The translations under genes and the position numbers were made by a program. From contig CAVZFC010000035.1 of NCBI GenBank assembly GCA_963774445.1, positions 261,470-325,469 on the forward strand: 64,000 nt of DNA, in the 5' to 3' direction. The notes beneath the pieces were generated by a model that made no database searches, was not told the origin of the DNA, and worked only from the letters and a program-made list of their open reading frames with translations. This DNA is from an uncultured delta proteobacterium (GTDB taxonomy: Bacteria > Myxococcota_A > Polyangia > Haliangiales > Haliangiaceae). Each line of letters starts with the position of its first letter. Positions within the stretch are counted from its first letter, which is position 1. Positions 1-61,274 of the stretch are shown in pieces.

Positions 1-1111
1 GGCCCAGGCCACGCGCCCACATGGCGGCGCGATCGCTCTCCTCGGGCAGGTCCAGGTGCACCAGCACCACGCCGCGATCGAAGTGCAACGGCCGGCCCTC
101 GGCACGGCCCGCGGTGGCGACCAACGGACCGGTCATGCCGGCGAGCAGGATCCGGTCGATGCCCGCCTCTCGCAGGGTCGGCGCGAGCTCGTCCGCGTCC
201 TCGAGAAGCAGCACCGCATCCCACCACATCGCCTCGCGCATGATGGTGCGCCCGAGCATGCCGAGCGGCCCCTCCTCCGCGGGCAGGCGATCGCAGCGCA
301 CACGCAACACGGGATACCCGAGCTCGGCGGCCGCGCGATAGACCAGCGCCTTGCGCCCGGCGCCTTCGGGCCCGGCGACGACGATGGCGGGATGGGTCCG
401 GGTGCCGCCGGATGCCGCGATGGCGGCGACGAGCAGCCGGGCCACCTGTCGTTGGGGCGCCTCCTGGGCGACCAGCGGCTCGAGGGACGATTCGCCGGAG
501 ACGAGCTCGCAGGTGCCGGTCAGCTCGCGATCGAGCCGGTCGAAGCCGTGTGCCAACTCGAGCACGCGATCGGCGATGCGCAGGCGCCGCAGCACGAACG
601 CCACGTCGCGCCCGGCATCGAGATCCTGGACCAGAGCAAAACGGAACAGCGCCCCGTCGGCGCGAAGGTCGGCGAGCGCCCGCTCGGGAATCCCTTCGTA
701 CAAGAGCAGCTGCAACAGCCCGACGTCGGGTTGAGGGCGGCTGGGATCGCCGACGAGGAAGCGCGCCAGCTCGCGCAACTCGGCGTCCATCTCCAGCGCG
801 ACCAGCACCCCGAGCGCCCGTTGCTCGCCGGACGACAACCCGAACACCTCGCGCAGCCGATCCAGAGGCATCGGCGTTCCGGCGGCTCGCGCGGCCGCGG
901 CGCGGGCCGCGCTGGCTCGGACAAGCCCTACGATGGCGTCGTCGAGATCGGCTCCCGAGGGCATCCCGGGCGGCACGCCCTCCGGTCGCCGCTTGCCGAC
1001 GGCCCGCACCAACAACATCCGCGCGAGCGAGGTCTCGTCCGCCAGATGCTCCGCCGGGCTGGTGTATGCGGCCGCGCTCGAAGCCGGACTGTCGGTCTCA
1101 GGGGGCGCCAT
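1..1111 (-). CDS. AAA+ ATPase-like protein, partial (C-terminus lies before window start)
   Basis: Hand-translated minus frame, absent from the ORF track because it runs off the window. Reads MAPPETDSP...LLVRAVGKRRPEG...HPAIVVAGPEGAGRKALVYRAAAELGYPVLRVRCDRL...ILLAGMTGPL. This is an AAA-like P-loop region with a degenerate Walker A (GPEGAGRK). ATG at 1109-1111. Confidence 0.45.
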   Translation of the reverse strand, partial: MAPPETDSPASSAAAYTSPAEHLADETSLARMLLVRAVGKRRPEGVPPGMPSGADLDDAIVGLVRASAARAAAARAAGTPMPLDRLREVFGLSSGEQRALGVLVALEMDAELRELARFLVGDPSRPQPDVGLLQLLLYEGIPERALADLRADGALFRFALVQDLDAGRDVAFVLRRLRIADRVLELAHGFDRLDRELTGTCELVSGESSLEPLVAQEAPQRQVARLLVAAIAASGGTRTHPAIVVAGPEGAGRKALVYRAAAELGYPVLRVRCDRLPAEEGPLGMLGRTIMREAMWWDAVLLLEDADELAPTLREAGIDRILLAGMTGPLVATAGRAEGRPLHFDRGVVLVHLDLPEESDRAAMWARGLG

Positions 1112-2273
1112 CGAACTTGACCACCTCCGCCTGCCGATCGCTCAGCGCGGCAAACGCGATCGCCCCCCCATCCACGGTCGGCAGCAAGCCACGCACGCCG
1201 CAACCGTTGCTGATGCGCTTCCATTCGCCGCTCGCCTCGTTCAGCGTGCGGACCAGGGCGCCGTGCTTGGCGGTGTCATAGACCGCGTAGCCGCAATGCT
1301 CGTCGACGATGGTCCCGGTCATGTCGGAGGTGCGGCGCGGCTCGTAGTCGTAGAACCAGATCAGAGTTCCGTCGAAACCGACGGTCGGGTAATAGTCACT
1401 GGAGGAGGCCAGGAACGGCAGCCCCTGCGTCCACGCCAGATCGACCTCCGCCTTCAGCACGCCGTCCGACAGCGAGAGAACTTGAACGTGCTGTCGGACC
1501 CCGGTGTCACCGCTCTCGTCCGTGTAAGCGACGGCGATGGTACCGGCCTTGCCGGCAACCGCGACCTTGCCGACCGGCGTTCGGCCGATCGTCGCGATCG
1601 TCCCATCCTTGGGCGAGAGCCGCACGAGCTCCTGATAGTGCTCACGCTGCACCGTCTCGCCGTCGTGGGTTTCGGAATAGTGCGCGACCCGCAGGATGAC
1701 ATCGCCGTTGGCCAACCAGGCGCCCGCGGAAACGTCGTCGATGGTGGTGCCGTCCAGCGTCTTGCTCCAGGTCGGCTCCGACGAGTCGTGGTCGTAGCGA
1801 GCGATCGACGCCCCCTTGGCGGTGCGCACGAGCCCGAGCACGCCGGGGGAGAGATCGTACCAGTGCTGTTTGCCCGAAGGGACGGGGATCTGGTACTGCT
1901 CGCCGCCAAACGTGTGCAGCACTGCGACGATGGAGCCGTCCTGCGACTTCTCCTCGAACCCGATAGCTTCGCCGTACTGCGTGCCCCCGTGCCCGGGGAC
2001 GACGGCGGTGCGCGGGCTGTCGGTTCCGATTCGCCCACCTGCCAGTACCAGCGGCCGTGCGGCGCGGGTCGCCGTGACTTGCGCCACCTGCCGGAATGAA
2101 AACTCCTCGTCGCCCTGCGGCGCGTCAACCTGAACGGTCCAGGCCGGCGTCACGCTCTTTGCTTCACCCGACGGCATAGTCTTCCCTCCGCCCTTGCTGT
2201 CCTTGGAGCACGACGCACCAATCGACGCGCCGCCGAAGACGGCAAGCGCGAGCAGAGCGACGGTGCGCGGCAT
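1098..2273 (-). CDS. secreted protein / putative lipoprotein, hypothetical
   Basis: Signal peptide MPRTVALLALAVFGGASIGASC. The ATG at 2271-2273 overlaps the stop of the upstream DUF4157 gene (TGATG). The ORF track starts it at 2315, which I consider less likely. Confidence 0.55.
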   Translation of the reverse strand: MPRTVALLALAVFGGASIGASCSKDSKGGGKTMPSGEAKSVTPAWTVQVDAPQGDEEFSFRQVAQVTATRAARPLVLAGGRIGTDSPRTAVVPGHGGTQYGEAIGFEEKSQDGSIVAVLHTFGGEQYQIPVPSGKQHWYDLSPGVLGLVRTAKGASIARYDHDSSEPTWSKTLDGTTIDDVSAGAWLANGDVILRVAHYSETHDGETVQREHYQELVRLSPKDGTIATIGRTPVGKVAVAGKAGTIAVAYTDESGDTGVRQHVQVLSLSDGVLKAEVDLAWTQGLPFLASSSDYYPTVGFDGTLIWFYDYEPRRTSDMTGTIVDEHCGYAVYDTAKHGALVRTLNEASGEWKRISNGCGVRGLLPTVDGGAIAFAALSDRQAEVVKFDGAP

Positions 2274-4747
2274 CAGGACTCGTTGAGCAGCCTTTGCAGA
2301 CTTTTTAGCTGCCATCCGTCGAGACTATCCCAAAGATCGTCGTCGCGGACGGTCCAGCCCTCCTTGAAATGCCCCTGCCACGAGTGCCCCTCGAGCCGGC
2401 GGAAGAGCTCTTTGCGCTCACCGGATGGCGCGGTCTGGAACAGCTCGAGGATTGAGGTCTGTTCTCCCTCGGACACGCCGATGCCCTGCCAGCTCTCCAG
2501 GTTGTTGATGTAGTGGATGCGCTGCTCCACGGTCAGGCCGCGGAGCAGAGTGTTTCTGTCAGCGGGCTTGCCGTCGGGCCCCGGCTTCTTCTCATCGGCC
2601 ATCTTCTGGCCTTTGTCGTGCAAACGATCAAGATCGGCCCGGGTGGCATCGTCCGTTCGCGAGTTGGCCTGCCCGCGCCCCGGGTCGAAGTCGATGATCT
2701 GCTGGATCTTGGCGCGCGTGGTCGATGGGGTGGTCATCTGCGCCAGGAAGCTGTTGTTGTACGCCGCCTGCGGATGCAGGTCGCCGAGATAGACCTGATA
2801 GCTTCCGACCGTGTCGTGCCAGACCGGCTTGGTCTCCGGGAACTTGGCCGCCAGGCCGCTGAGCTTGTCGCCGAACTCGCCGCCCGGGACCATCGACTGG
2901 AGGATGCGCAGCCCGAACGTCTCGTCCTGATCGCTGCGCACGCGTGCGCCCCACAACGTCTGGAAGTTGGACTGTTTCCAGCACTGGGTGCCGTTGTCGG
3001 CCGCTCGAGACGCATCCGGGAACGGCATCATCTGCTCGGCTCCATAGTTGGCCCCCGGTTTCGCCGGCGCCGCGGTGGTCGAGCGCACGTGGGCGATTAC
3101 CTCTTGCTCGCTCATGCTGGCATCCGCTGCATGGGCCTGCTGGATGTCGGAGACGCCGAGCCGGACGGCGGTCTCCACCTTCTCCTTGGTGGCATCCTGC
3201 TCGGCCGGAGCTCCCGGCGACACCCCGCCGTGGCTGTCGCCGAACGTCTTCCAGGACATCTGGAGCTCGTTGGTGACCCACAGCCCCCTGGCGTTGTCCA
3301 TGTCGTGGGTGATGAGCGACACGATGTCGTCGAAGCCGAACTCCGGCAGGCTGGCCGTCTTCTCGTCGATCTGCGCCTGGGTGTCCTTCATGATGTCGAG
3401 GACCGAGCCCATGATGGTGGCGGCGTTGGTCTCGTGGGCGTTCATGTAGATCGCCACGTCCTGGGCGATCGTTTTCTTGAGGTTCTCGAAGAACAGAGGG
3501 TACTTGCCGTTCCAGTACTCGGCGATGCTCGCGCGCGGCGTGCGCAGGTGGCCGGCGGCGAAGCCGTCAGTGAGGAAGTGCTCGGCGGCGGCCTCTCGCG
3601 CCATCGGCTCGTCGATCCCCTTGCCGTCCTTCTTGGCCTGGTGAGCGCGCAGGATCGCGTCCTCGTGCAAGGCTCGATAGCTGCCGCCGGCCGACTGCCG
3701 GTTGCCCGACTTGGGACCGCCCGAGCCCGGTCCCTTGGGGTTGGCGAAATGCTCGGTGTTGGAGTCGGCGAGTCGCAAGTAGCGAGCTTCGACAGCGTCC
3801 TTGACCTGCTGCGAGAACGTGACCTGCGACCAGATCCCCATCAGCGGATCTTTCTCGCTGCACATCGGCTTGAAGCGCCGGTCGTCGGGCCGGGCGTGCT
3901 TGACGGCGTAGATGATCTCGTCCTGCGTGCCGGGAATACATCCGGGCAGCGGCGAGGGCGTGCTCGCGAGCTTGAAGAAGTTGTCGGGAACCGGGTTGCC
4001 CTGCAGGTCGGTCTCGCGCGCGTCGAAGTAGTCGCCGCTCAGCATGACGATGTCGCCGTGGGTCAGCTCGAACCGGAAGTCGGGGCCCGGATCGACGCCG
4101 AGCGCCGGCGCCAACACCGGCGCCAACATGTGGTCGGTGTCCTGTTTGTAGGTGCCGTTGTACCCGGCCGCCTTGGCGCCTTCGTCGCCGTAGGTCTGGT
4201 GCTCCTTCGAGCCGAACATCTGGATCGGCTGCCCCTCGGCCTTGGCCTGGCCGGCTCCGGACGCGGCGCCGCTGTGACCGATCAGCTGAGACGGCACTGG
4301 CTCGCCGCGGACCGCCGCCGCGCCGGCCGCGTCGGCCTCGGCTTCGAGCCCCTCGTCGGCGTTAATCGGTGAGCCCTTGGCCTGCGGTGCAGCGACCCGC
4401 CCGGCCCGCTGCTGCTGGACGTGAGCCAACTCGTGTCCGAGCAGCGCCGTCCCCTCGCGCGTCGACGGGGTGCCGCGGCCAGCCGCCAGATGAACCGTCT
4501 CACCCTGCGTGTAGGCCTGCGCGCCCAGCGCATCGGCGCGCCCGTCCTGCTTGACGTTGACGCCGGAGAAGTCGGTCCCGAACACCTGGCCCATCTGTGT
4601 CTTGACCGCGTCCATGCTCGAGCCGACCAGCCCTTGTGCGCGCTCTGCCGACGGCACCGGCGCAGATTCGGCCGCTTGGTCCTCGCGCTGGGGCGCGGCC
4701 GGAGTGGCGGCCGTATCGCGATCGTGAGAGTCGTCCAGTTGGCGCAT
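2273..4747 (-). CDS. DUF4157 (zincin-like HExxH) domain-containing large protein, putative toxin/effector-like
   Basis: 824-aa ORF. The N-terminal region contains LLGHELAHVQQQ, which is typical of DUF4157. I did not recognise the C-terminal 600 aa. Confidence 0.65.
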   Translation of the reverse strand: MRQLDDSHDRDTAATPAAPQREDQAAESAPVPSAERAQGLVGSSMDAVKTQMGQVFGTDFSGVNVKQDGRADALGAQAYTQGETVHLAAGRGTPSTREGTALLGHELAHVQQQRAGRVAAPQAKGSPINADEGLEAEADAAGAAAVRGEPVPSQLIGHSGAASGAGQAKAEGQPIQMFGSKEHQTYGDEGAKAAGYNGTYKQDTDHMLAPVLAPALGVDPGPDFRFELTHGDIVMLSGDYFDARETDLQGNPVPDNFFKLASTPSPLPGCIPGTQDEIIYAVKHARPDDRRFKPMCSEKDPLMGIWSQVTFSQQVKDAVEARYLRLADSNTEHFANPKGPGSGGPKSGNRQSAGGSYRALHEDAILRAHQAKKDGKGIDEPMAREAAAEHFLTDGFAAGHLRTPRASIAEYWNGKYPLFFENLKKTIAQDVAIYMNAHETNAATIMGSVLDIMKDTQAQIDEKTASLPEFGFDDIVSLITHDMDNARGLWVTNELQMSWKTFGDSHGGVSPGAPAEQDATKEKVETAVRLGVSDIQQAHAADASMSEQEVIAHVRSTTAAPAKPGANYGAEQMMPFPDASRAADNGTQCWKQSNFQTLWGARVRSDQDETFGLRILQSMVPGGEFGDKLSGLAAKFPETKPVWHDTVGSYQVYLGDLHPQAAYNNSFLAQMTTPSTTRAKIQQIIDFDPGRGQANSRTDDATRADLDRLHDKGQKMADEKKPGPDGKPADRNTLLRGLTVEQRIHYINNLESWQGIGVSEGEQTSILELFQTAPSGERKELFRRLEGHSWQGHFKEGWTVRDDDLWDSLDGWQLKSLQRLLNES

Positions 4748-4919: not shown

Positions 4920-5831
4920 TCAGGGCGCCGGGACGCCGCGCAGCAGGACCCCGCGCGAGCCGGCGATCCAGACGGCGCCACCACAGGGAGCGACCGCGGT
5001 GAGATCTTCGCTGACTCCGCTGGGCGCGATCGAGAACTGCTTGCCGTCGGCGGAGACCAGGACGGTGCCGGCGCGCCCAACGGCGTAGACGGCGCCGCCG
5101 GGGTCGGTTGCGAGGTCGAACAGCGGCGCCCTGGCCGGGGTCGGTCGGGCGCGAAACGTCTTGCCTCCGTCCGCCGAGGCCAGGAGCTTGCTGTCGTCTG
5201 GGGCGTTCGCCAGCAGCGTGCCGTCGGGCGCGACCGCCAGGGCGCCGCCGATGTCGGGGCCGTCGCGGTGGCCCATGCCCATCGGTCCCGTGTCCGGTCC
5301 GGTCCAGACGCGCTTCCAGCTGCCGCCGTCGTCGTCGGAGCGGAGCAGGAACACGAAGGCGCTCTCGAGGCTGTCGTGGACCATCAGCGCGCTGCCCAGG
5401 GCGTAGAGCTGCGAGCCGTCGGGCGCGACTGCGAGCCGCAGCAGTCTGACCCGGTATTCCTTCAGGACGTTTCCGGGCTCCGCGATCTGCGGGCCGCGGC
5501 TCCAGTGTTGCCCGCCGTCGACCGAGCGCATCAAGTGACCGTCGTCGGCCACGCGGTAGACGCGGTCGCCCAGTCGCGCGGTCACGTGCGGGTCCACGGC
5601 GTCGGTCGGCGGCGCGGGCGCCTCGGCGGCCCCGCCCGCGGGAGAGTGACGGCGGCCGTGACTGTCGCCGATCGAGATTCGACCCTCCGCCGAGCAATAG
5701 AGGTGGTCGAGATGGTCTGTGGTTCCGGCGGAGACTCGCGTCCAGACGAGGCGCGGTGGGACGCGATTGGCGTGGGCCGAACAACCGGCGACCAAGAGGG
5801 CGAGGAGACTCCAACGCATCGGACCCAGCAT
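4920..5831 (-). CDS. BNR/Asp-box repeat (Ycf48-like beta-propeller) lipoprotein
   Basis: Lipobox LLVAGCSA. Repeated D-G-G-x-x-W/F motifs (DGGQHWSR, DDGGSWKRV, DGGKTFRA). Confidence 0.6.
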   Translation of the reverse strand: MLGPMRWSLLALLVAGCSAHANRVPPRLVWTRVSAGTTDHLDHLYCSAEGRISIGDSHGRRHSPAGGAAEAPAPPTDAVDPHVTARLGDRVYRVADDGHLMRSVDGGQHWSRGPQIAEPGNVLKEYRVRLLRLAVAPDGSQLYALGSALMVHDSLESAFVFLLRSDDDGGSWKRVWTGPDTGPMGMGHRDGPDIGGALAVAPDGTLLANAPDDSKLLASADGGKTFRARPTPARAPLFDLATDPGGAVYAVGRAGTVLVSADGKQFSIAPSGVSEDLTAVAPCGGAVWIAGSRGVLLRGVPAP

Positions 5832-13639: not shown

Positions 13640-13800
13640 CGCGGCGAGGGCGCACCCTTCGACTACGGGCGCTACGCGCCCTCCGCTCAGGGTGACCGGA
13701 ACGAAGGCGCGGGCGGTTGATCGAGGCCGGTCGCCCTGAGCGAGCGGCGCGCGCGAAGCGGGCGCCGCGGTGTCGAAGGGCGCGCCTGTGGCGCCCGCGC
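13640..13800. repeat. composite palindromic REP-like element (same family as 28106..28170)
   Basis: Contains gcgcacccttcgac...gctcagggtgaccgg and ccggtcgccctgagc...gtcgaagggcgcgcc. These are the two arms of the 28.1-kb palindrome, here arranged around a central spacer. It lies between convergent genes. Confidence 0.6.
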
Positions 13801-13866
13801 GCCCCGGACGCAAGAACGCCCGGGGGGCCGGTGGGCCGCCCGGGCGTCCAGACTATCGCAGCCGTC

Positions 13867-14208
13867 TCAGATCTTGCCGAGGAGCATGAACGAGATGACC
13901 AGCGCGTAGATCACGAGCGACTCGATGAGGGCCAGGCCCAGAATCATCGGCGTCATGATCTTGCCGGAGGCGCCGGGGTTGCGGGCGATGCCGTCCAGCG
14001 CGCTGGCGGCGGCGCGGCCCTGGCCCATGCCACCACCGAAGGCGGCGATGCCGATGCCCAGGCCGGCGGCGAGCGCGATCCAGCCCTTGGCGCCCTCCTT
14101 CGCGGCTGCGACGCTGGTGCCGTCATCGGCGAACGCCACGGCGGCGATCGCCAGGACCGTGAGCGCCGACAGCGCCATCAGAATGAGCTTGATCTTGCGG
14201 TTCGTCAT
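13867..14208 (-). CDS. atpE: F0F1 ATP synthase subunit c
   Basis: 113 aa. Hairpin with GRAAASALDGIARNPGA...LALIESLVIY. ATG verified at 14206-14208. Confidence 0.9.
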   Translation of the reverse strand: MTNRKIKLILMALSALTVLAIAAVAFADDGTSVAAAKEGAKGWIALAAGLGIGIAAFGGGMGQGRAAASALDGIARNPGASGKIMTPMILGLALIESLVIYALVISFMLLGKI

Positions 14209-14249
14209 GTCGTGTCTTCCTTTACTCTCGAATCGGTTGTCTCGGTGGT

Positions 14250-15035
14250 CTAGTGGTCGTGGGCGATGGCCATCGAGATGTAGACCATCGACAGAAGGCA
14301 GAAAACCAGGGTCTGCACGACAGTGACGAGCAGACCGAGGAACAGGAACGGGACTGGAACGAAGAACGGCACCAGGCCGAAGAAGGTGAAGACCACCTTG
14401 TGGTCGCCGACCATGTTGCCCATGAGGCGGATGGCCAGCGACAGCGGCCGAACGAAGTGACTGATCAACTCGATGACCAGCATCAGCGGCGCGATCACCT
14501 TGATCGGCCCCATGAAGTGGCCGACGTACTTGGCCACGCCGTGCTCTTTGATGCCGTAGATGTGCGTGGCGAAGAAGATGATCAGCGCCGGCGCCAGGTT
14601 GGTGCGCAGGAACGTGGTCGACACGCCCATGCCCGGGATCAGCGCCATCATGTTGGAGAACAGGATGAAGAAGGCGCACGAGGCGATGAGCGGGAAGAAC
14701 CGGCGCGCGGCCTTTTCGCCCATCACGCCTTCCATCAGCGACAGCGTGGTGTCGCAGATCAGCTCGAAGAAGTGGCGCAGGTTGAACTTCGGCGGCGGCA
14801 CCAGGCCGGCCTCGCCGCGTCCGACGACCGCACCGCGGAAGCGGGCCGCGCCGTAGAGCACGAACGCCATGACGACCATCGCCCAGAAGACGTGGATGAA
14901 GGTCTGCGACGGCGTCCCGAACATCTTCCAGAAGCCGCCCAGCCATTCGTGATCGAAGTGGCGCAGCTTGCCGGACAGTCCGAGGACCGCGTCGTTCTTG
15001 TCCAGGTAATCGAGCCAGGTTTGATGTTCGCCCAT
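14250..15035 (-). CDS. atpB: F0F1 ATP synthase subunit a
   Basis: Internal start MGEHQTW. Conserved LSLAIRLMGNMVGDH motif containing the essential Arg. Confidence 0.9.
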   Translation of the reverse strand: MGEHQTWLDYLDKNDAVLGLSGKLRHFDHEWLGGFWKMFGTPSQTFIHVFWAMVVMAFVLYGAARFRGAVVGRGEAGLVPPPKFNLRHFFELICDTTLSLMEGVMGEKAARRFFPLIASCAFFILFSNMMALIPGMGVSTTFLRTNLAPALIIFFATHIYGIKEHGVAKYVGHFMGPIKVIAPLMLVIELISHFVRPLSLAIRLMGNMVGDHKVVFTFFGLVPFFVPVPFLFLGLLVTVVQTLVFCLLSMVYISMAIAHDH

Positions 15036-15054
15036 GAGATTTCGCGTCTTTGGT

Positions 15055-15441
15055 CTACGCGTCCTCGTCGCCGGCCGTCTGCGCCTGCCCGGTGAGCGAG
15101 CGAGCCGTTTCGATGGCGATCGAGACGAGGAAGATGGAGAAGCCCATCGCCAGGTAGGCCGGCGCAATGGGCAGGAAGCGGAGCGCGAGGAAGACCGCGG
15201 CGATGAGCAGCATCATCTTGGGCACCATGAAGTAGCCCGATTTGCCCTCACCCTTTTCCGCCTCGCTGAGCCAGCGAGTGACGATCCGCTTGATCATGCT
15301 GAAGTTGAGACTGCCGATTGCCACGCCGACGAGCACGCCCAGTGCCTGCTCCTTGGTAAGCAACAACGCGGCCGCGGCCGCGGCGATGCCGCCGAGAATG
15401 TAGTTGAGCCGTTCGATGCGGCCGAGGGCGCGAGTGTCCAT
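15055..15441 (-). CDS. ATP synthase protein I-like membrane protein
   Basis: Small protein with 3-4 TM segments, immediately upstream of atpB. Confidence 0.55.
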   Translation of the reverse strand: MDTRALGRIERLNYILGGIAAAAAALLLTKEQALGVLVGVAIGSLNFSMIKRIVTRWLSEAEKGEGKSGYFMVPKMMLLIAAVFLALRFLPIAPAYLAMGFSIFLVSIAIETARSLTGQAQTAGDEDA

Positions 15442-37878: not shown

Positions 37879-39225
<1,347 letters not shown>

Positions 39226-39850
39226 GTCGTGGCGGTCGCCGGGGCTGCTGGCCAGGTCGACCGCGGCGCCGGCGTCGCGCAACCAGTTGGCGCTGGCCTC
39301 GACGTGCGCGGGGTCGACCCAGGGGTCGCCGTCGGCGGCGCCGAGCAATACGCGCAGGCCGGTGTGGCTGCCGGGGGTCGGCGGCGCCCACTCGTCGGGC
39401 GGGCCGATCCGCGCGCCGCACAGGGCGACCACGGCGGCGACGCGACCCGGGTTGCGCGCGACGAGCTCGAGGGCCAGGCAGGCGCCCTGGGAGAAGCCGG
39501 TGAGCACGGTCGACTGCGGCGGTGCGATCGCGGCCAGCGCGGTGAGCGCCGCGTCGACCCGGGCGAGGGCGGCCTCGACCTCGGCGTCGCGGCCCGCGCC
39601 CGGCGCGCCGTAGCGGGTGGCGTACCAGCGGTCGCTGTCGCTGCGCAGGCCGATGATCGCGGTGGTCGGATCGTGGCCGGCCAGCTCGCGCACACGGCGA
39701 ACCATGCCGCCGGCTTCGGCGCCGCGGCCGTGCAGGGCCACCACGATCCGCCGCGCGCTGGCCGGGTCCGGACCGGCGAGCAGCGCCAGCGGCTCGGGGC
39801 CGAGCGCGAGGCGACCGCCGGCGCCGGTGGGGCGCAACCCGTGCTGCGCG
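39226..39850 (-). CDS. phospholipase/carboxylesterase-family alpha/beta hydrolase (same open frame as hmgA)
   Basis: RRIVVALHGRGAEAGGM...LTGFSQGACLALEL. Boundaries are approximate. No stop codon on either side. Confidence 0.45.
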
Positions 39851-40852
39851 TCGGCGACGACGTCGGCCGACAGGTCGGGGCGCGAGCGGGTCAGCTCGGC
39901 CACGGCGTCGGCGCCGACGCCGAGCGCTTCCAGCGAGGTCGGCGCTCCGGCGCGGGTCAGTAGATCGTGGAGGTGCGGCTCGAGGTCGCGGCGTCCGACG
40001 GCCGCCTCGAGCTCGGCCAGCAGCGACGGCTGCTCGCTGCGAAGGTGGGCCAGCGTTTGCGGCAGGAGAATACTGTGCAGCGCGGCGTGGGGCAGGCCGA
40101 GGGCGCCGCCGAGCAGGTGCGCAAGGGCGTGGTGAACGCCCATCTTGCCCCGGTCGAGCAGCGCGCCGGCGCGCGACGCGGCGACCAGCGCCCGGTTGCG
40201 GGTGGCCAGATCGGCGGGCCAGAGCAGCAGGTCCTCGATCGCACGCACCAGCGCCGCCGCGGCGGCCAGCGCGGCCGCGCGATCCTCGCCCTCGAGCGAC
40301 GCGGTCGACAGCGCGCCGACGGGATGGGCGAAGGCGTTGAGCAGGCTCTGCACGCTGAGCGTGATCGGCAGGGTTGCGCTCAGCGCCGGGTCGTAGGCGA
40401 CCAGGTTCCGGACGGACGCGATCGGCGCGGCCGGTGACCTTGCGACCATCGCGGGTGACGCCGTGGATCGAGGTCATCTCCGAAGCCGAGTAGGTGGTCG
40501 GCACCGCGGCGAAGCGCAGGTCGTGGTCGAGGCAGAGCGCCTTGCCCAGGCCGGTGGCCGAGCCGCCGCCGACGGTGACGATCGTGTCGGCCTGTCCCAG
40601 GGCGGCGGCGGCGCGGTCGACCACGTCGCCCGGCACGTGCACCTGGGCGCCGTCGAAGACCGCGCTTTCGTATCGAGCCAGCGCCGCGAGCACGGCGTTG
40701 ACGTGGCGGCGCCCGGGTGCGCTGATGACCAGCAGTCGGCGCGTCCCCAGCTCGCCCAGCCGTGTGGCCAGGCGCGGCAGCGCGTCGGCGCCGTCGATGA
40801 TCTCGACCGGCTCGCGATCGTGTGAGTCGACGCTGCTCATCGTCACGATCAT
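39851..40852 (-). CDS. iron-containing alcohol dehydrogenase family (maleylacetate reductase-like), frameshifted near 40410
   Basis: The N-terminal half (MIVTMSSVDSHD...TIVTVGGGSATGLGKA...GRKVTG) is in one frame. The C-terminal half (NLVAYDPAL...GVHHALAHLLGG) is in another. The 3' boundary is approximate. Confidence 0.5.
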
Positions 40853-46673: not shown

Positions 46674-48395
46674 ATGGACGCGGCGGCTCGGCTGATGCTG
46701 GGGCAGTGGTTCACGCCGCCGGAGGTGGCGCGGCTGGCGCTGGCGCTGGTGGGGACGCGCGGGCGGCTGCTCGATCCGGCCTGCGGAGACGGGGCGTTTC
46801 TGGCGGCGGCGCGGCAGGCGGGGGTGGCGGCCGAGCGGCTGTTTGGGGTCGAGCTGGATCCCGCGGCGGCGGAGGCGTGCGCGGCGCGGGTGCCGGGGGC
46901 GCGGATCGAGCGCGGCGATCTGTTCGCGGTCGCGGCCGACGGGGAGGGGTTCGATGTCGTCGTCGGCAACCCGCCGTACGTGCGCACCGAGCGGATGAGC
47001 GCGGCGCAGAAGCAGCGCGTGCGCGCGCGGCTGGCCGACGACTGGCCGGACGCGCCGCCGCACCTGATCGATCGGCTGGTCGGGCGCGGCGATCTGGCGG
47101 CGGCGTGCGTCTTGCGCGCGCTGCGGCTGGCGCGGCCGGGTGCGCGGATCGCGCTGGTGCTGTCGTCGGCGCTGCTTCATGCCGATCACGCGGCGCCGCT
47201 TTGGGAGCTGGTCGGCCGCCACGGCTGCGTGCGCGCGCTGGTCGACGCACCGGCCGAGCGCTGGTTCGCCGACGCGGCGGTCAACGCGCTGATCGTGGTG
47301 ATCGAGCGGGGCGGCGAGCCGGCCCCGGTGCGGGTCGCCCGGCTGCGCGTGCCAACGGCGGTCGCCGCCGACCGGGTGCGCGGCGACGGTGATCTCGACG
47401 CCGTCGCCGATGTTCGCCTGGTGCCTGCCGATCGCCCGGCGCGCTGGGCCGCGGCGCTGCGCGCGGAAGCGGCCTGGTTCGAGCTGGAGCGCGTCGCGGG
47501 TCCGGCGCTGGTGCCGCTGGGCGAGCTGGCCACGGTTCGCCGCGGCATCACGAGTGGCGCCAACGAGGTCTTCTATCTCTCCCGCGATCGCGCCCGCGCG
47601 CTGGGGATCGAGCCGGCGCTGCTGATGCCGCTGGTGCGGGTGCCACGCGAGCGCGCCGACGCCGCCATCGCCGTCGACCCGGACACCACCAGCCACGTGG
47701 TCCTGGCGGCGCCGGCAGATCCGGAGGCGCTGGCCCGCCATCCGGGCGCCGCGCGCTGGCTCGAGGCCAATGCGGCTGCCGCCGTCCGCACCATGCTGCG
47801 CGCTCGCTCGCCCTGGTGGGCGCTGTCGATCGAGCCGGCGCGGCTGTTTCTGGCCAAGGCGTACGCCGCGCGCTTCGTCCAGCGCCTGGCGCCGCGACCG
47901 ATCGCCTGCGATCAGCGGGTCTACGCCGTGGACCCCAGGCCGGGCACGGACGTCGAGCTCCTGGCCGCGGTGCTCGACTCGACCTTCACCGCGCTGGCGA
48001 TCGAATCGCTGGGCCGCGCGTCGATGGGGCAGGGGGCCCTCGAGCAGACGGTCTCCCAGGCGGCGGCGCTGCCGGTGATCGATCCGCGCCGCCTGGACGA
48101 GGCCGGAGCCCGCGCCGCCCGCGCCGCGCTCGACGCCATGGCCACCCGCCCGATCGGCACGGTCGCGGCCGAGCGCAGCGCCGCCGATCGCGGGCGTCTC
48201 GATCGCGCCGTCGCCGCCGCCGCCCCCGGCGCCGCCGCGCTGCTCGGCGCCGTTCACGACGCCCTCGTCGCCTCCGTCGCGCGCCGTCACCAGCGGGCGC
48301 GATCGGTTACTTCTTCTTCGACGACCGCTTCTTGTGATGGTGCCGGTGGTGGTGCTTTCGCCGGCCCTTGCCCAGCTTCAGCACCTCGACGGTAG
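46674..48395 (+). CDS. N6-adenine DNA methyltransferase (gamma-class, TaqI/Eco57I-like), apparently orphan
   Basis: WFTPPEVARL, LLDPACGDGAFL and VVGNPPYV motifs. The C-terminal 300 aa is a putative target-recognition domain. Confidence 0.75.
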   Translation: MDAAARLMLGQWFTPPEVARLALALVGTRGRLLDPACGDGAFLAAARQAGVAAERLFGVELDPAAAEACAARVPGARIERGDLFAVAADGEGFDVVVGNPPYVRTERMSAAQKQRVRARLADDWPDAPPHLIDRLVGRGDLAAACVLRALRLARPGARIALVLSSALLHADHAAPLWELVGRHGCVRALVDAPAERWFADAAVNALIVVIERGGEPAPVRVARLRVPTAVAADRVRGDGDLDAVADVRLVPADRPARWAAALRAEAAWFELERVAGPALVPLGELATVRRGITSGANEVFYLSRDRARALGIEPALLMPLVRVPRERADAAIAVDPDTTSHVVLAAPADPEALARHPGAARWLEANAAAAVRTMLRARSPWWALSIEPARLFLAKAYAARFVQRLAPRPIACDQRVYAVDPRPGTDVELLAAVLDSTFTALAIESLGRASMGQGALEQTVSQAAALPVIDPRRLDEAGARAARAALDAMATRPIGTVAAERSAADRGRLDRAVAAAAPGAAALLGAVHDALVASVARRHQRARSVTSSSTTASCDGAGGGAFAGPCPASAPRR

Positions 48396-54181: not shown

Positions 54182-54534
54182 GGCGCGGGATCGCTGCATC
54201 GAAAGAGCTCCTGACATCCCGTTGATCCCTCGAAAAAGGCGCACCACGCGTGCGCCCACGCGTCGCCATCATAATCCGGCACCTATCGATGTCAAGCACG
54301 CGACTCCGCAAAATTCCTCCGCTTTTTTCCTAAACGGATCGGCTTTTCACTGGCCACTGATCACAACGCTGGGGCGATTGTCCATCCGACCTGCAACCAG
54401 CACCTGCCCAGGGTGTCGTAGCGAGGACCAGCCAGAGCCCGGCAGCTTGACAAGTGTGTGAGCCCACCGCGATGATGCGCACCGCGTATCGCCGAGCGCG
54501 TGCCCGAGGCTCGACGACTGGGAGGTCATCTAGA

Positions 54535-56142
<1,608 letters not shown>

Positions 56143-56358
56143 CCAGCCCTGAGCTCTTCACTGTCTACCGGCGCGTCGCCTCGCCCCAACCTGATGACGC
56201 CCAAGACAGGCACCAAAACCGCCGGCCACCGGCCGGCAAACCAGCACAACTCGTGTGAGAGCGACGTTTCCGCGGCCGCGTTCAGCCGGCTCACGGGCCG
56301 TCGCTCATTTCGTTTTCGGAGTCCCGCCAGGACAGAAGCGAGACAAGGGGAGAGAGCC

Positions 56359-59300
56359 ATGAAACATGTCCGTCTACTAGGAGCGGCGCTCGCTGGCGCG
56401 CTCGTGCTCACCTGGCTGGCGCCCGGTGACGCGCTGGCGCAGCACGCGCGCTACAACCGCGAGTCCAAGGTCAACATCAAGGTCAAGCAGAGCAGCAAGA
56501 CCAAGAAGCTGAAGGCGAAGAAGAAAAAGTCGTCGGAGCTCAAGCCCGAGCTGACCGCCGACGAGTTCATCGAGATCGCCGGTCAGGTGAGCCACATCCG
56601 CGCGGCGCAGATCGAGGCGCTCAACCAGCTCATCAGTGAGACCGAGGCCGACGACCCGGAGCTCCCCGACCTGCACTTCCGGCTGGCGGAGATGTACGCC
56701 CAGCAGAACCGGTACTGGAACCACCGGGGCATGGAAGAGTTCGTCCAGATGGACAAGCTGAAGAGGGCGCACAAGAGCACTGCCGCGCTCAAGCGCAAGC
56801 AGAAGTCCTACTTCGACGAGTCCAAGAAGTACCTGGTGCGGGCGATCAAGCAGTACAAGAACCTGTTCTGTAGCCCCAAGGACCTGGGCGCCGGGCTCAA
56901 CTGCCGGCCCAACCCCAATTTCCGCAACTACCCGCGCATGGACACGGCGCTGTTCTACTTCGCGTTCACTCTGCAGAGCGCCAAGCAGATGACGGACGCC
57001 CGCAAGGTCTACGCACGTCTGGTCAAGGACTACCCCAAGTCCAAGTACATCCCCAGCGCGTTCCTGTCGTTCGCCGAGTACTACTTCGAGGCCGGCGAGC
57101 TGGCCAACGCTGAGCGCTTCTACGACAAGGTTCTGCAGTTCCCCAAGGCGCCGGTCTACACCTACGCGCTGTACAAGAAAGGCTGGGTCTTCCTCAACCT
57201 CGACCGCAACCAGGAGGCCTATGAGGTCTTCACCAAGGTTGCGCGGCTGACCGACGGCAAGAAGTCGAAGAAGACCATCAACCTGGCGTCCAAGAAGGAC
57301 TGCGTTCGCGCCTACGCCGAGATGGGCCGGGCCGAGACCGCGCTCAAGGCGTTCGAGCGCGTCAACCGCAAGTTCGCGCCGACGATGTTGCAGATCCTGG
57401 GCGACATGTACATGGACGACGGCAAGGCCGAGAAGGCGATCTACGTCTTCCGCGAGCTGATCGGCCTGGAGGCCAAGAAGTCGAAGAAGAGCCCGCAGAT
57501 CTGCGAGTGGCAGTACAACGTCGTCCACGCGATGATGTCGATCGGCAGCTACGGCGACAAGGCCGACGAGATCGAGAACCTGGTCAAGCTGTACAAGTAC
57601 CTCAAGGACCACAAAGCCATCCCGGAGTCGAACCTCCAGGAGTGCTACGAGAACGCCATCGCCGTGAACAGCGAGATGGCCAAGATCTGGCACAACGAGG
57701 CGATGAAGACCTTGAACACCGAGACGCTCGCCTACGTCGAGCGGATGTATCACCTGTTCCTCACCAGCTTCCCGGAGTCCGAGGAGTACGGCGAGATGCA
57801 GAAGTACTACGCCGAGCTCCTGTGGCAGCGGGCGCTGAACGAGAAGAACCCGCGCAAGGCGACCGAGATGTGGGAGAAGGCGGCCAACGCCTTCACTGAC
57901 GTGGTCAAGGCCGGCAAGGTCAACAAGAAGCTGCTCAAGGATTCGGCCTACGCCGCCGTGCTGGCGTGGAAGAACGCCCTCGACGTCGATCCGCGGCCGC
58001 AGGGCGTGAGCGCGCCGGACGATCTCGACCAGAAGGAAGAGGAGATCCCCAAGCCCAAGGAGATCCCGGAGCGCGAACAGAAGATGATCGACGCCTTCGA
58101 CATCTACATCACCTACGTCAAGGACCCGACCGACGACGAGCTGGTGCAGATGAAGTTCCTCAAGGCCCGCCTGTACTGGCGCTACAACCAGTTCGACAAG
58201 GCCATCCCGATGTTCGAGGACATCATCAAGCACAACATCAAGCACGAGACGGGCGAGTACTCGATCAACCTCTTGCTCGACACCTTCAGACGCACCCACA
58301 ACTACGACAAGTTGGTCTGGTGGGTGAACTACCTCCTCGAGCACGAGGAGAAGAACCTGAAGGACAAGCAAGAGCTGTGGGGCACGCTGACCAAGCTCAA
58401 GCGCCAGTCGATGCGTAAGCAGGCCGAGCAGCTCGAGAAGGACAAGAAGTACATCGAGTGCGGCAAGGCGTACCTGGCGATCTTCAACGAGGATCCCAAC
58501 AGCGACGACGGTCACGAGCTGCTGTACAACTCGGGCGTCTGCTTCCAGGACGGCATGTCGATGGGCGCTGCCCGTCAGGTGTTCAACATCCTGGCGCAGC
58601 GCTATCCCAAGGAGAAGGTCACGCAGCGCGCGATCGCGCGCCTCGGCTACATCTACGGCCGCGTCGCCTGGTACGGACGCGCCGCCGCGAAGCTCGAGGA
58701 GTACGCCCGCAGGTTCGGCGGCGAGAAGGACGCCTACAAGGCGCTCAACGACGCCGTCTTCTACTACAAGGGCATTGGCGAGGACGACAAGGCGATCAAG
58801 AGCACCGAGTTCTTCGTCAAGCAGTACAAGAAGAAGAAGCCGGTCGAGGCCGCCAACGCGTTCTACAGCCTGGTGACCATCTACGAGAAGCAGGGCGACA
58901 AGGACAAGATCGTCCGCCACCTGCGCGAGTACCTCAAGGAGCACCGCCGCAAGGGCGGGATCGACCGCGAGATCATCGCCCACGTCAAGATCGGGCGGAT
59001 CCTGTGGGACAAGTCGTGCCCGCTGTCCAAGACGGTCAATGGCTCGTGCATCAAGGTCACCCGCCAGCGCGCCATCGCGTCGCGGCGCAAGAAGCGCCGG
59101 CATCACGGTGGCTCGAGTCTGCCGACTCAGTGCGGCCCCGACTCGAAGCTGAAAACGGTGGTCAAGGAGCGCGACAAGCGCCTCGTGCGCGACGCGTACA
59201 AGGAGCTCAACACGGCGGTCAAGCTGTTCCACGGCGGCAAGGCGATCGACAAGGTCCCCGGAGACGCGGCCGAGAAGCAGGCCCGCCAGGAGCAGATGAT

Positions 59301-59940
59301 CGCGGCCTATGCCCAGGCCAAGTTCCTCCTGGCCGAACAGAACTACGAGGAGTTTCTGGGCATGAACTTCCCCAAGAACCTCAACTTCGATCCCAACAAG
59401 AAGAAGGTGAAGGAGAAGTCGCTCAAGATCTTCATGGACTGGATCGCCGACAAGGGGCACAGAATGCTCCAGCTCACCGCCAAGGGCGATGAGACCGATC
59501 CCAAGACCAAGAAGCCTGCCAAGTTGGGCGCCTACCGCGAGGTCATCAACATCAAGGGTGGCGGTGCCGACTACGCCATCGCCGCGGCCGCGCGTATCGG
59601 CCAGGCCGCGCAGAACTTCTCCGACACCCTGTTCACGGCGTCGATCCCTCAGAACGTCCGTACGGGACAGTTCGCCGAGGACAAGGTCGATGCCTACTGC
59701 GACGAGCTGACCTCGCAAGCCACGCCGCTCGAGGACATCTCGATCGGCGCCTTCGGGTTCTGCTTGAAGGTCTCCACCGATCAGAACTGGTTCAACTCGT
59801 GGTCGAAGCTGTGTGAGCGCGAGCTCGGTCAGATTCGCCCCGAGGAGTTCCCCACCGCCGCCGAGCTGCACGAGGATGCCGCCGGTATGGCCCCGGTTAC
59901 CGACATCGAGCCTCCGCAGCTCGAGCTGGTCGGTGAGTGA
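56359..59940 (+). CDS. large secreted TPR-repeat protein (GltD/AgmU/NfsD-like)
   Basis: 1193 aa. Signal peptide MKHVRLLGAALAGALVLTWLA. TPR throughout. The C-terminal 250-aa domain is shared with 8041..8814. Confidence 0.6.
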   Translation: MKHVRLLGAALAGALVLTWLAPGDALAQHARYNRESKVNIKVKQSSKTKKLKAKKKKSSELKPELTADEFIEIAGQVSHIRAAQIEALNQLISETEADDPELPDLHFRLAEMYAQQNRYWNHRGMEEFVQMDKLKRAHKSTAALKRKQKSYFDESKKYLVRAIKQYKNLFCSPKDLGAGLNCRPNPNFRNYPRMDTALFYFAFTLQSAKQMTDARKVYARLVKDYPKSKYIPSAFLSFAEYYFEAGELANAERFYDKVLQFPKAPVYTYALYKKGWVFLNLDRNQEAYEVFTKVARLTDGKKSKKTINLASKKDCVRAYAEMGRAETALKAFERVNRKFAPTMLQILGDMYMDDGKAEKAIYVFRELIGLEAKKSKKSPQICEWQYNVVHAMMSIGSYGDKADEIENLVKLYKYLKDHKAIPESNLQECYENAIAVNSEMAKIWHNEAMKTLNTETLAYVERMYHLFLTSFPESEEYGEMQKYYAELLWQRALNEKNPRKATEMWEKAANAFTDVVKAGKVNKKLLKDSAYAAVLAWKNALDVDPRPQGVSAPDDLDQKEEEIPKPKEIPEREQKMIDAFDIYITYVKDPTDDELVQMKFLKARLYWRYNQFDKAIPMFEDIIKHNIKHETGEYSINLLLDTFRRTHNYDKLVWWVNYLLEHEEKNLKDKQELWGTLTKLKRQSMRKQAEQLEKDKKYIECGKAYLAIFNEDPNSDDGHELLYNSGVCFQDGMSMGAARQVFNILAQRYPKEKVTQRAIARLGYIYGRVAWYGRAAAKLEEYARRFGGEKDAYKALNDAVFYYKGIGEDDKAIKSTEFFVKQYKKKKPVEAANAFYSLVTIYEKQGDKDKIVRHLREYLKEHRRKGGIDREIIAHVKIGRILWDKSCPLSKTVNGSCIKVTRQRAIASRRKKRRHHGGSSLPTQCGPDSKLKTVVKERDKRLVRDAYKELNTAVKLFHGGKAIDKVPGDAAEKQARQEQMIAAYAQAKFLLAEQNYEEFLGMNFPKNLNFDPNKKKVKEKSLKIFMDWIADKGHRMLQLTAKGDETDPKTKKPAKLGAYREVINIKGGGADYAIAAAARIGQAAQNFSDTLFTASIPQNVRTGQFAEDKVDAYCDELTSQATPLEDISIGAFGFCLKVSTDQNWFNSWSKLCERELGQIRPEEFPTAAELHEDAAGMAPVTDIEPPQLELVGE

Positions 59941-59957
59941 AAGGACGGAGGTGAGCT

Positions 59958-61274
59958 ATGCGTAACCTCAGCATCATCGTCATGACCCTCGGACTCGCAG
60001 CGGTCGTCGCTGCGTGCGGCGGCCCCGCCAAGGGGGCCAACGCCCCGCACGGTAAGGGGGGCACCGTCGGCAAGGTCAACACCTCGGGCAAGCACGCCAA
60101 GCAGGCCCCCGATCGCAGGGTCTCGAAGGACGCCAAGAAGGACTTCGCCGAGGCCGTTGCCATCCACAACAAGGCGGCCGCCGACGGCTGGACCAACGAC
60201 GAGTGCAACGACGTCGCCTCGAAGTGGGACGACGTGGCCAGCGAGCACCCCAAGCTGGTCGAGGCCCGGTACAACGCCGGCCTCGCCTATCACTCGTGTG
60301 GGATGCTCGACAAGGCCGAGGCCGAGTACAAGCAGGCGCTCAGCATCGTCGGCAGCCACGCGCCCAGCATCTCCAACATCGGCGAGATTCGCTTCAGCCG
60401 GGGCGATGTCAACGGCGCCAAGGCTCAGTGGGAGCTGGCGCTGAAGGCCGACTCCAAGCTGGTCGCGGCGCGCAACAACCTGGCCTGGCTGCTCCTCGAT
60501 CAGCTGCGCACCACTACCGACCACTCGGCGTGGACGCGGATCGAAAAGGAGGCACGCGATCAGCTGTCCAGCGTGCTGGCGGTCGATCAGTCCAACTACA
60601 AGGCGTACGTCCTGTACGGGCTGGTCTACCTCGAGGGCTCCGATCGCAACAAGAACCGGCTCGATCTGTCGAAGCTGCTGCTCGACGAGGCCAAGAAGCA
60701 CAACGAGAACTACCCGCCGCTGCAGAACGCCTACGGGCTGCTCTACCTGCGACGCAACTCGCCGGGCCGCGCGCTGGAGAAGTTCTCCAAAGCGGTCGAG
60801 CTCGATCCGGACTTCCTCGAAGCGCGGATGAACGTCGGCAACATCACCCTGAACTTCCGCAAGTACGACGTCGCCGAGCAGCAGTTCTCGTACGTGCTGA
60901 AGAAGCAGCCGAAGAACTACGACGCCCTCATCGGCCAGGGGATCGCCGAGCGCGGCCTGGGCAAGATCGACGACGCGGAGAAGAGCTACCTGGCGGCGCA
61001 AAAGGCCGACAGCCGCCGGCCGGAGGCCTACTACAACCTGGGCGTCCTCTATAAGGACTTCCGGGCCAACAAGGCCAGCGACCTGCAGGGCTCGATTGCC
61101 ATGTACGAGAAGGCCAAGGGCTACTTCGGTCAGTTCCTGACCAAGCCGGGGATCAACGGCGACGACAAGGAAGAGGCCAAGGACAACATCCAGGACTGCG
61201 ACAAGACCGTGAAGCAGATTCGGGATGCCATCGCGGCCATGAAGGCGGCCGACGAGCCCGCTCCCAAGAAGTAG
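59958..61274 (+). CDS. TPR-repeat lipoprotein (GltE/AglT/NfsE-like)
   Basis: Lipobox LAAVVAACGG. TPR repeats. 438 aa. Confidence 0.55.
   Translation: MRNLSIIVMTLGLAAVVAACGGPAKGANAPHGKGGTVGKVNTSGKHAKQAPDRRVSKDAKKDFAEAVAIHNKAAADGWTNDECNDVASKWDDVASEHPKLVEARYNAGLAYHSCGMLDKAEAEYKQALSIVGSHAPSISNIGEIRFSRGDVNGAKAQWELALKADSKLVAARNNLAWLLLDQLRTTTDHSAWTRIEKEARDQLSSVLAVDQSNYKAYVLYGLVYLEGSDRNKNRLDLSKLLLDEAKKHNENYPPLQNAYGLLYLRRNSPGRALEKFSKAVELDPDFLEARMNVGNITLNFRKYDVAEQQFSYVLKKQPKNYDALIGQGIAERGLGKIDDAEKSYLAAQKADSRRPEAYYNLGVLYKDFRANKASDLQGSIAMYEKAKGYFGQFLTKPGINGDDKEEAKDNIQDCDKTVKQIRDAIAAMKAADEPAPKK

Follow-up and report, generated by a model that had tools for sequence, protein, structure and literature searches.

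The window analysed here is a stretch of 64,000 nucleotides of contig CAVZFC010000035.1 from an uncultured member of the Haliangiaceae (Myxococcota). At its low-coordinate end lie three minus-strand genes that are chained by overlapping stop and start codons and encode a toxin of 824 residues, a partner lipoprotein and an AAA+ ATPase. We read these genes as a cassette consisting of a cargo toxin of the kind known from extracellular contractile injection systems (eCIS), an immunity lipoprotein and a cargo-loading ATPase that is encoded away from the genes of the injection particle, and we give this explanation a probability of about 60%. The Myxococcota form of the family is a stand-alone cassette, in which the toxin is joined by a lipoprotein resembling an immunity protein and, in many cases, by an Afp15-like loader of its own.

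In the proposed mechanism, the 824-residue protein would be an eCIS-type cargo that opens with a short N-terminal stretch of non-hydrophobic character, continues with the zincin-like DUF4157 module and ends in the toxin proper. Its likeliest substrate would be membrane phospholipid attacked from the periplasmic side, because the partner is predicted to sit in the periplasm or the outer membrane, and nucleic acid would be the alternative substrate. The beta-propeller lipoprotein would be the cognate immunity protein that protects sister cells. The Afp15-like AAA+ ATPase would recognise and unfold this cargo and feed it into the tube of a particle encoded elsewhere in the genome.

The coordinates of the cassette are collected in Table 1. 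At the junction of the toxin and partner genes, TGATG, the toxin TGA (2275-2273) and the partner ATG (2273) have one base in common. The partner TGA (1100-1098) is found inside ATGGCGCCCCCTGA, and the ATPase starts at 1111, giving an overlap of 14 nucleotides. The ATPase reading frame leaves the window at base 1 or 2 after 370 codons. An earlier sequence-only reading had listed three overlapping head-to-tail genes on the minus strand, the 824-residue toxin, the TGATG junction and an ATPase running off the window, and all of these features were present. A Shine-Dalgarno sequence GGAG is located 8 nucleotides 5' of the toxin ATG, and the intergenic gap upstream is 170 nucleotides. A sigma-70 scan found no promoter, and the few terminator-like matches lie within coding regions and look like chance. 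The GC content of the window is about 70% and that at third codon positions is 0.83-0.87 across the three genes, with 0.87 in both the toxin and the ATPase. Judged by their homologues, the three genes are real and not chance open reading frames of a 70% GC sequence, since the toxin has more than 80 full-length homologues, the partner has 38 and the ATPase fragment is 40% identical to a 678-residue orthologue.

Table 1. Coordinates of the three cassette genes and of the toxin segments in the window
Feature	Position	Strand	Description
Toxin gene	2273..4747	-	824 residues + stop; low-complexity N-terminus, then DUF4157/eCIS_core, a linker and the enzyme domain at the C-terminus
N-terminal region	4609..4747	-	residues 1-46; candidate loading sequence, by direct reading
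DUF4157/eCIS_core zincin-like domain	4399..4608	-	residues 47-116, HELAH
F178-G-S-K-E-H183 motif	4199..4216	-	catalytic domain begins here; cleavage proposed ahead of F178
C-terminal toxin domain	2276..4216	-	residues 178-824; core ~178-632 phospholipase C / P1 nuclease-like (likely), helical extension ~633-824
Partner gene	1098..2273	-	391 residues + stop; beta-propeller lipoprotein, candidate periplasmic immunity protein
Afp15/Pvc15-type AAA+ ATPase, 5' part	1..1111	-	370 codons; winged-helix N-domain and degenerate D1

The toxin and its C-terminal domain

The presence of a DUF4157 domain with an HExxH motif, already noted in the sequence-only reading, was confirmed with the Pfam models. PF13699 (eCIS_core, formerly DUF4157) matched residues 47-116 of the toxin with an E value of 2e-20 and 73.2 bits against a cut-off of 22. 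The HExxH is H106-E-L-A-H110 within LLGHELAHVQQQ and is conserved across the family alignment. The N-terminal region that precedes the domain (MRQLDDSHDRDTAATPAAPQREDQAAESAPVPSAERAQGLVGSSMD) has many D, E, Q, A, P, S and R residues, and inspection of the sequence showed no hydrophobic stretch. No match for the toxin was obtained in NCBIfam, PADLOC or PHROGs.

DUF4157 is a signature of eCIS-associated toxins, since it occurs in 36% of the known ones and in 0.06% of other genes (PMC11297309), and its odds ratio in eCIS operons is 2614 (PMC8213781). About half of the predicted eCIS toxins consist of DUF4157 and an unannotated C-terminus (PMC11297309). The eCIS-associated toxins Cgo1 and Cgo2 of AlgoCIS and EAT14 have the same layout as the window toxin, with a non-hydrophobic N-terminus followed by DUF4157 with HExxH and a variable C-terminal toxin, and the AlgoCIS cargos Cgo1 and Cgo2 are loaded by the AAA+ protein Alg15 (bioRxiv 10.64898/2026.05.27.728243). 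In contrast to these toxins, the cassette apparently has no eCIS operon in reach, it comprises its own ATPase and a lipoprotein partner, and the C-terminal domain of its toxin belongs to no annotated toxin family. On the basis of the DUF4157 marker, the AlgoCIS-like layout and the eCIS-adjacent homologues in two other phyla, we assign the toxin family to the eCIS cargos.

The C-terminal domain of about 650 residues is found in more than 80 proteins at 31-60% identity, in Myxococcota (Kofleriaceae, Haliangiales and related metagenome-assembled genomes, MAGs), in cyanobacteria such as Nostoc, in Acidimicrobiales and Acidobacteria, and in further groups. DUF4157 stands in front of the domain in 33 of the 42 sampled members and is missing in the cyanobacterial ones. 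The Nostoc toxins (protein P0031; locus L087:10001-12223) have no HExxH core and retain an N-terminal leader (...LHRPQAKL...EDQYEHQAQQVANQIISMPD...) that resembles the flanks of DUF4157 proteins and looks like a degenerate or minimal DUF4157-type leader. A genome scan with one genome for each of 185,579 species yielded 320 confirmed stretches encoding relatives of the domain, the closest of them 57% identical to the window toxin. Many of these stretches, in Pseudonocardiaceae and Acidimicrobiia, encode shorter proteins that stand alone and correspond to the core at residues ~225-632 and to nothing else of the toxin. This stand-alone core was seen in about 50 genomes of the two groups (L031-L080, e.g. 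L036 around 10001, L064, L066 and L075; P0085, P0086, P0088). The proteins have ~470-500 residues, lack DUF4157, a signal peptide and the C-terminal helical domain, and belong to monoderm hosts.

Neither Pfam nor NCBIfam contains a model that matched the roughly 650 C-terminal residues, which had also gone unrecognised in the sequence-only reading and had been put forward there for structure prediction. An AlphaFold2 model of the domain, computed from 87 sequences, was of high confidence, with a mean predicted local distance difference test score (pLDDT) of 94.1 and a predicted TM-score (pTM) of 0.92. The top Foldseek matches of this model, none of them significant, point to a phospholipase C (PLC) / P1 nuclease-like fold. 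Invariant in the alignment are H183, D232, D239, D276, H333, H361, E385, H390, D394, H400, H481, D482, N485 and D504. The spacing H390-x3-D394-x5-H400 is that of three zinc ligands of Bacillus cereus PLC. In a single, non-significant hhalign alignment to the 1ah7 sequence, which was verified to be identical, H333-F-x-x-P was paired with H69-F-Y-D-P of PLC, and H390/D394/H400 with H118/D122/H128. The residues of H69-F-Y-D-P and of H118-x3-D122-x5-H128 are all invariant in the PLC alignment. Further candidate metal ligands in the toxin are position 178, H183, D232 or D239, H481, and D484 or N485. We consider the assignment of the C-terminal domain to the PLC / P1 nuclease fold likely. It is probably a highly divergent member of the PLC / S1-P1 nuclease fold and a multinuclear metal-dependent phosphodiesterase.

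The domain differs in several respects from the zinc-dependent phospholipases C (B. cereus PC-PLC, the N-domain of clostridial alpha-toxin, Listeria PlcB) and from the S1/P1 nucleases. Sequence homology is undetectable, and the toxin domain, which contains long insertions and ends in an additional helical domain, is roughly 2.5 times their size. The toxin family has Phe or Met and not Trp at position 1, the candidate for the last ligand pair is H481...N485 or D484 and not H...E or D, and H361, E385 and D504 are additional invariants. Starting from B. cereus PLC, a homologue search yielded 37 mostly close relatives and was too narrow to serve as a bridge to the toxin family. NrnA, the sole match of the domain in an hmmsearch of the PDB, had an E value of 0.22 and was dismissed as spurious. 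Separately, a 307-residue protein of a Polyangia (Myxococcota) MAG (P0157) has a genuine PF00882 domain and is 34% identical to B. cereus PLC, and therefore canonical zinc phospholipase C enzymes occur in Myxococcota too.

The N-terminal boundary of the catalytic domain could be placed precisely, which is new. In the fused toxins the domain opens with Q-x-F178-G-S-x-E-H183; 73 of 81 sequences have the F, and 84 of 85 the E-H. Of the 49 stand-alone actinobacterial homologues, 46 begin with an ATG or GTG that precedes the corresponding His by exactly 5 codons (M-K/R-S/A-x-E-H). Since these start codons fall at the same position, the natural N-terminus of the enzyme coincides with F178. The distance from position 178 to H183 is the same as that of Trp1...His6, which we take to be the ligand spacing of P1 nuclease. 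The coincidence of the N-terminus with F178, together with this presumed P1-like spacing, supports the fold assignment. In S1/P1 nucleases, the zinc cluster is held in part by main-chain atoms of residue 1 of the mature protein (PMC5201275). By analogy, a free alpha-amino group at catalytic position 1 may be needed to complete the metal site of the toxin, where the position-1 residue may be the initiator Met in the stand-alone homologues and the internal Phe178 in the fused toxins. The boundary thus suggests that the fused toxins need a cleavage before F178 for activity; that DUF4157 is the protease making this cut is speculation. The joint idea that cargo-specific loaders are encoded with their cargo in satellite cassettes and that the toxin is a zymogen is tentative, and we would sooner bet against it than on it.

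The partner lipoprotein and the ATPase

The partner begins with MPRTVALLALAVFGGASIGAS followed directly by Cys, that is, a hydrophobic signal and a lipobox-like Cys, which bears out the proposal that the protein downstream of the toxin is secreted. Its start at 2273 (391 residues) is the start in the public record (P0158, 391 residues), and an alternative ATG at 2315 would give 405 residues. Pfam returned no family for the window partner, PADLOC and PHROGs gave no match and a word-indexed homologue search found only the protein itself. An exhaustive HMMER search identified 38 relatives among 1.84 billion representative proteins. The AlphaFold2 model of the partner (pLDDT 87.8) is all-beta with the first 30 residues disordered, and several orthologous partners match PQQ_2, a BamB-like propeller family. 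A hydrophobic stretch with a lipobox-like Cys was found at the start of 27 of the 37 listed partner sequences, a list in which the window partner and a few others are counted in both alignments and several of the signal-less sequences look like truncated gene calls. Two Cys near the C-terminus are conserved, which suggests a disulphide bond.

The partner gene directly follows the toxin gene in at least 13 loci, with TGATG or ATGA overlaps of 1-4 nucleotides; in the Myxococcota loci the spacing is -4 to +40 nucleotides. Being tightly coupled, co-inherited, rapidly diverging and exported, the partner has the look of an immunity protein against a toxin acting in the periplasm. It is a fast-evolving beta-propeller lipoprotein that most likely serves as periplasmic immunity protein. 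Of the two roles that had been suggested for it, immunity is thus the better fit, and that of a chaperone was discarded because a protein exported by the Sec and Lol pathways cannot attend a cargo in the cytoplasm.

Periplasmic lipoprotein immunity is typical of the phospholipase effectors of type VI secretion systems (T6SS), the Tle/Tli pairs. There, as in the cassette, the gene of a toxin directed at membrane lipids (predicted in our case) is followed by a tightly coupled gene for a fast-evolving periplasmic lipoprotein. In contrast to the Tle proteins, the predicted fold of the toxin is neither an alpha/beta hydrolase nor a phospholipase D, and its delivery markers are DUF4157 and the Afp15-like ATPase, not PAAR, VgrG or an adaptor. 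For a DUF4157 cargo, toxicity only when directed to the periplasm has been reported (PMC12210884).

A different gene follows the toxin in three non-myxobacterial loci. It encodes a small protein of 152-167 residues without a signal peptide (L021:11833-12291, L029:3665-4153 and L030:12061-12564, from Thermomicrobiales, the PVC group and Acidobacteria). The small proteins have the motif LG(V/I)xWG(E/D)DA...LG(V/L)xCxxW.PW in common and no Pfam match. They may form a second immunity family against this toxin domain, one that stays in the cytoplasm.

The ATPase fragment in the window matched PF22977 ('winged helix domain, variant') at residues 7-198 with an E value of 5e-16. A weak AAA match at residues 244-313 covers the degenerate P-loop GPEGAGRK (residues 246-253), where the Walker A Lys of the D1 domain is replaced by Arg; this region aligns with D1 of Afp15. 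The inactive D1 of Pvc15 has likewise been described with Arg in place of the Walker A Lys (PMC11495950). The fragment is 41-45% identical to full-length orthologues of 677-678 residues, the search against that of locus L083 (678 residues, from the Myxococcales MAG GCA_016794525.1) giving 40% over 363 residues and E 3e-52, and its alignment is colinear with the ATPases of L083 and L085 (677 residues) and with Afp15. D2 carries GPPGTGKT and DEAD in the orthologues of L083, L085 and L010, and D2 of the window gene itself lies beyond the window edge.

Afp15 of the Serratia entomophila plasmid has the same Pfam architecture as the window type of ATPase, PF22977 (E 6.6e-20) and one strong AAA domain near the C-terminus. 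The L083 ATPase matched Afp15 with E values of 2e-54 to 8e-63, and the orthologues are about 34% identical to it over D1-D2. A direct BLASTP comparison of the window fragment with Afp15 was not significant (E 0.11). The assignment to the Afp15/Pvc15 type, which the sequence-only reading had raised as a possibility, is made because of the shared architecture and the transitive homology through the orthologues. The loaders Afp15, Pvc15 and Alg15 resemble this ATPase family in having a PF22977 N-domain, a degenerate D1 and an active D2, the latter known here from the orthologues. The gene position is different. The afp15 gene sits between the tape-measure and the DUF4255 tail-terminator genes, whereas the ATPase gene follows the toxin and the partner in the window, L083 and L085.

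Genomic linkage and alternative explanations

The order toxin, partner (358 or 369 residues) and winged-helix AAA ATPase (678 or 677 residues) seen in the window was also found in L083 and L085. In both loci the genes on either side of the cassette are unrelated to it; the ATPase is followed by a GDPD gene in one and by genes for small unknown proteins in the other. In total, 8 Myxococcota loci have an Afp15-like ATPase within 4 kb of the toxin, in three arrangements. The ATPase gene is downstream of the partner in the window, L083 and L085, directly upstream of the toxin on the same strand in L010 and L026, and upstream on the opposite strand in L015, L025 and L079. An all-against-all comparison showed that these loci have only the toxin, partner and ATPase families in common.

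Homologues from other phyla are adjacent to injection-system genes. In 9 cyanobacterial loci, a homologous toxin is encoded 1.5-3 kb from genes for Tail_P2_I, baseplate, gp25, PAAR, spike and CIS_tube proteins. In L016, from an Acidimicrobiales MAG, the ATPase is upstream of the toxin, and tube, spike and baseplate genes follow about 6 kb downstream in the same 22-kb stretch. In the cyanobacteria, a conserved protein of 423-424 residues (MKERLQI.KKADS...QAKVENQKFQK...) is encoded 200-330 nucleotides downstream of the toxin and before the eCIS baseplate genes (Chroococcales L005:12042-13313, Nostoc L007:12347-13618 and Nostoc L012:3806-5080), and may be a second cargo.

Several results weigh against the explanation as an eCIS-type cargo with its immunity protein and loader. 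Its main weakness is that the particle to be loaded is assumed, as no eCIS structural gene was found in the window or in any syntenic Myxococcota locus. Sheath, tube and baseplate families were absent from the other 59 kb of the window and from the Pfam-annotated flanks of L083 and L085 within 10 kb on either side. Searches by tblastn with cyanobacterial eCIS proteins found nothing in any Myxococcota locus; the same queries detected the Acidimicrobiales cluster at 26-38% identity. The ATPase is missing from the close relatives L081 and L086, which have the toxin and partner. The cytoplasm is believed to be the place of delivery by eCIS particles, and the signal-less proteins downstream of the toxin in the three non-myxobacterial loci do not fit an exclusively periplasmic site of action. 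With regard to the fold, the Foldseek E values were about 0.7 or higher, and an hhalign comparison of the family profile with the sequence of 1ah7 gave 0.13, with no improvement (0.11-0.18) when an 18-sequence PLC profile or a trimmed-core local rerun was included. PF00882 and PF02265 had no match in 42 members at E <= 5, and the convergence of the invariant His and Asp residues on one site is a candidate feature only. Among the known eCIS-associated toxins, 88% are encoded within 10 genes of an eCIS operon (PMC11297309). The sequence-only reading had expected a contractile-injection locus just beyond the window, which is probably wrong in view of the 10-kb flanks of L083 and L085 free of injection genes, the negative tblastn searches in the Myxococcota loci and the housekeeping character of the rest of the window.

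In L081 of assembly GCA_054034095.1, the closest relative with flanking sequence (toxin 59% identical), the place of the ATPase is taken by a convergent gene for a Fic-domain protein of 442 residues (13793-15121, minus strand).

Alternatively, the C-terminal domain could act in the cytoplasm of the target, as a nuclease or as an enzyme of another kind, with the lipoprotein as an accessory such as a surface receptor or release factor, or as an unrelated co-transcribed gene. The spacing from position 1 to His-6 is that of the S1/P1 nucleases and not that of PLC, and the signal-less partners in other phyla agree with a cytoplasmic target. Nucleases are common among eCIS toxins, and many validated eCIS toxins have no immunity gene (PMC8213781). 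The behaviour of the partner speaks against this, since coupling by overlaps of 1-4 nucleotides, co-inheritance in at least 13 loci and fast divergence are usual for immunity genes, and we regard this alternative as unlikely.

The toxin might also be an effector of the T6SS or of another route and not an eCIS cargo, the lipoprotein its T6SS-style immunity protein and the ATPase a factor that keeps the toxin unfolded or inactive, or similar. A lipoprotein as immunity protein would be in line with the T6SS phospholipase effectors, and no eCIS gene is near the cassette in the window or in the flanks of L083 and L085. DUF4157 is also present in some T6SS effectors (PMC11297309, PMC12210884). However, no T6SS gene, PAAR, VgrG or adaptor was found near the cassette in the window, L083 or L085, the linked ATPase has the architecture of Afp15 and not of ClpV, and the Nostoc homologues adjoin eCIS-type clusters with CIS_tube and Tail_P2_I. 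We regard this reading as improbable.

An anti-phage defence or stress module, in which the AAA+ ATPase would control a latent metalloprotease-phosphodiesterase that kills the producer by abortive infection, is very improbable: the D2 AAA domain of the L083 orthologue does match the PADLOC IetA and TRIP13 models (E 2e-32 to 3e-12) and the window fragment weakly the NCBIfam IteA model (E 0.006), but these matches, like those to PHROGs, are limited to the generic AAA domain (IteA scored 15.8, with a cut-off of 510), neither PADLOC nor PHROGs matched the toxin or the partner, an IetS-type protease (subtilase) to complete an IetAS pair is missing, it is not evident what an exported lipoprotein would do in abortive infection, and in two other phyla the homologues are linked to eCIS loci.

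Fusions of DUF4157 to toxins are already known, as are ATPases of the Afp15 type. What is new, besides the boundary at F178 with its implication for activation, is the recurrent cassette of cargo, immunity protein and loader detached from the structural genes, and the likely assignment of a widespread unknown C-terminal domain to the PLC / P1 nuclease fold. A full-text literature search found no published description of such a cassette, or of PLC or S1-P1 Pfam families tied to eCIS or T6SS toxins.

Other genes of the window and significance of the cassette

The remaining 59 kb of the window are ordinary chromosome, with glmS, gyrA, trmD, L19, an ATP synthase subunit, pantothenate kinase, tetratricopeptide repeat (TPR) proteins, an FHA protein and others. 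Upstream of the cassette (4920-5831, minus strand) is a gene for a BNR/Ycf48-like protein of 303 residues with its own lipoprotein-type signal (LLVAGC). It was rejected as a member of the cassette as it has no counterpart beside the toxin in any related locus, and is probably unrelated. At 37879-40449 on the minus strand, an open reading frame of 856 residues joins a C-terminal fragment of an Fe-alcohol dehydrogenase, an alpha/beta hydrolase and the whole of a homogentisate 1,2-dioxygenase. A fusion could account for it, or a reading frame drawn too long across two or three genes in high-GC sequence. An N6-adenine DNA methyltransferase of the Eco57I/MmeI type (573 residues, 46674-48395, plus strand) may belong to a restriction-modification gene of type IIG/IIL. 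Three successive large TPR-repeat proteins of 562, 1248 and 438 residues are encoded at 54454-61274 on the plus strand, in a stretch with a GC content of 0.62 versus 0.70 and a strongly positive AT skew (~0.22). The gene for the FHA-domain protein lies 3' of them (61857-63998) and leaves the window.

With the fold assignment, one widespread C-terminal family of the 'DUF4157 + unknown' kind would gain an enzyme superfamily and specific residues for mutation. The coincidence of the stand-alone start codons with Phe178 provides a testable hypothesis of DUF4157 as an activating protease. If the zymogen idea is true, the toxin would become active only after delivery, through a cut ahead of Phe178 that the attached DUF4157 zincin might make, and DUF4157 would thereby have a concrete function. 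The lipoprotein as immunity partner argues that some myxobacterial eCIS-type toxins target the envelope of other Gram-negative bacteria. The cassette suggests that cargo, immunity protein and loader can travel together, independent of the particle genes, which matters for the question of cargo choice by eCIS and for engineering these particles to deliver proteins. If this is the case, each new toxin would bring an Afp15-like unfoldase for its own N-terminal signal, and a particle could be re-armed by horizontal transfer of a three-gene module.

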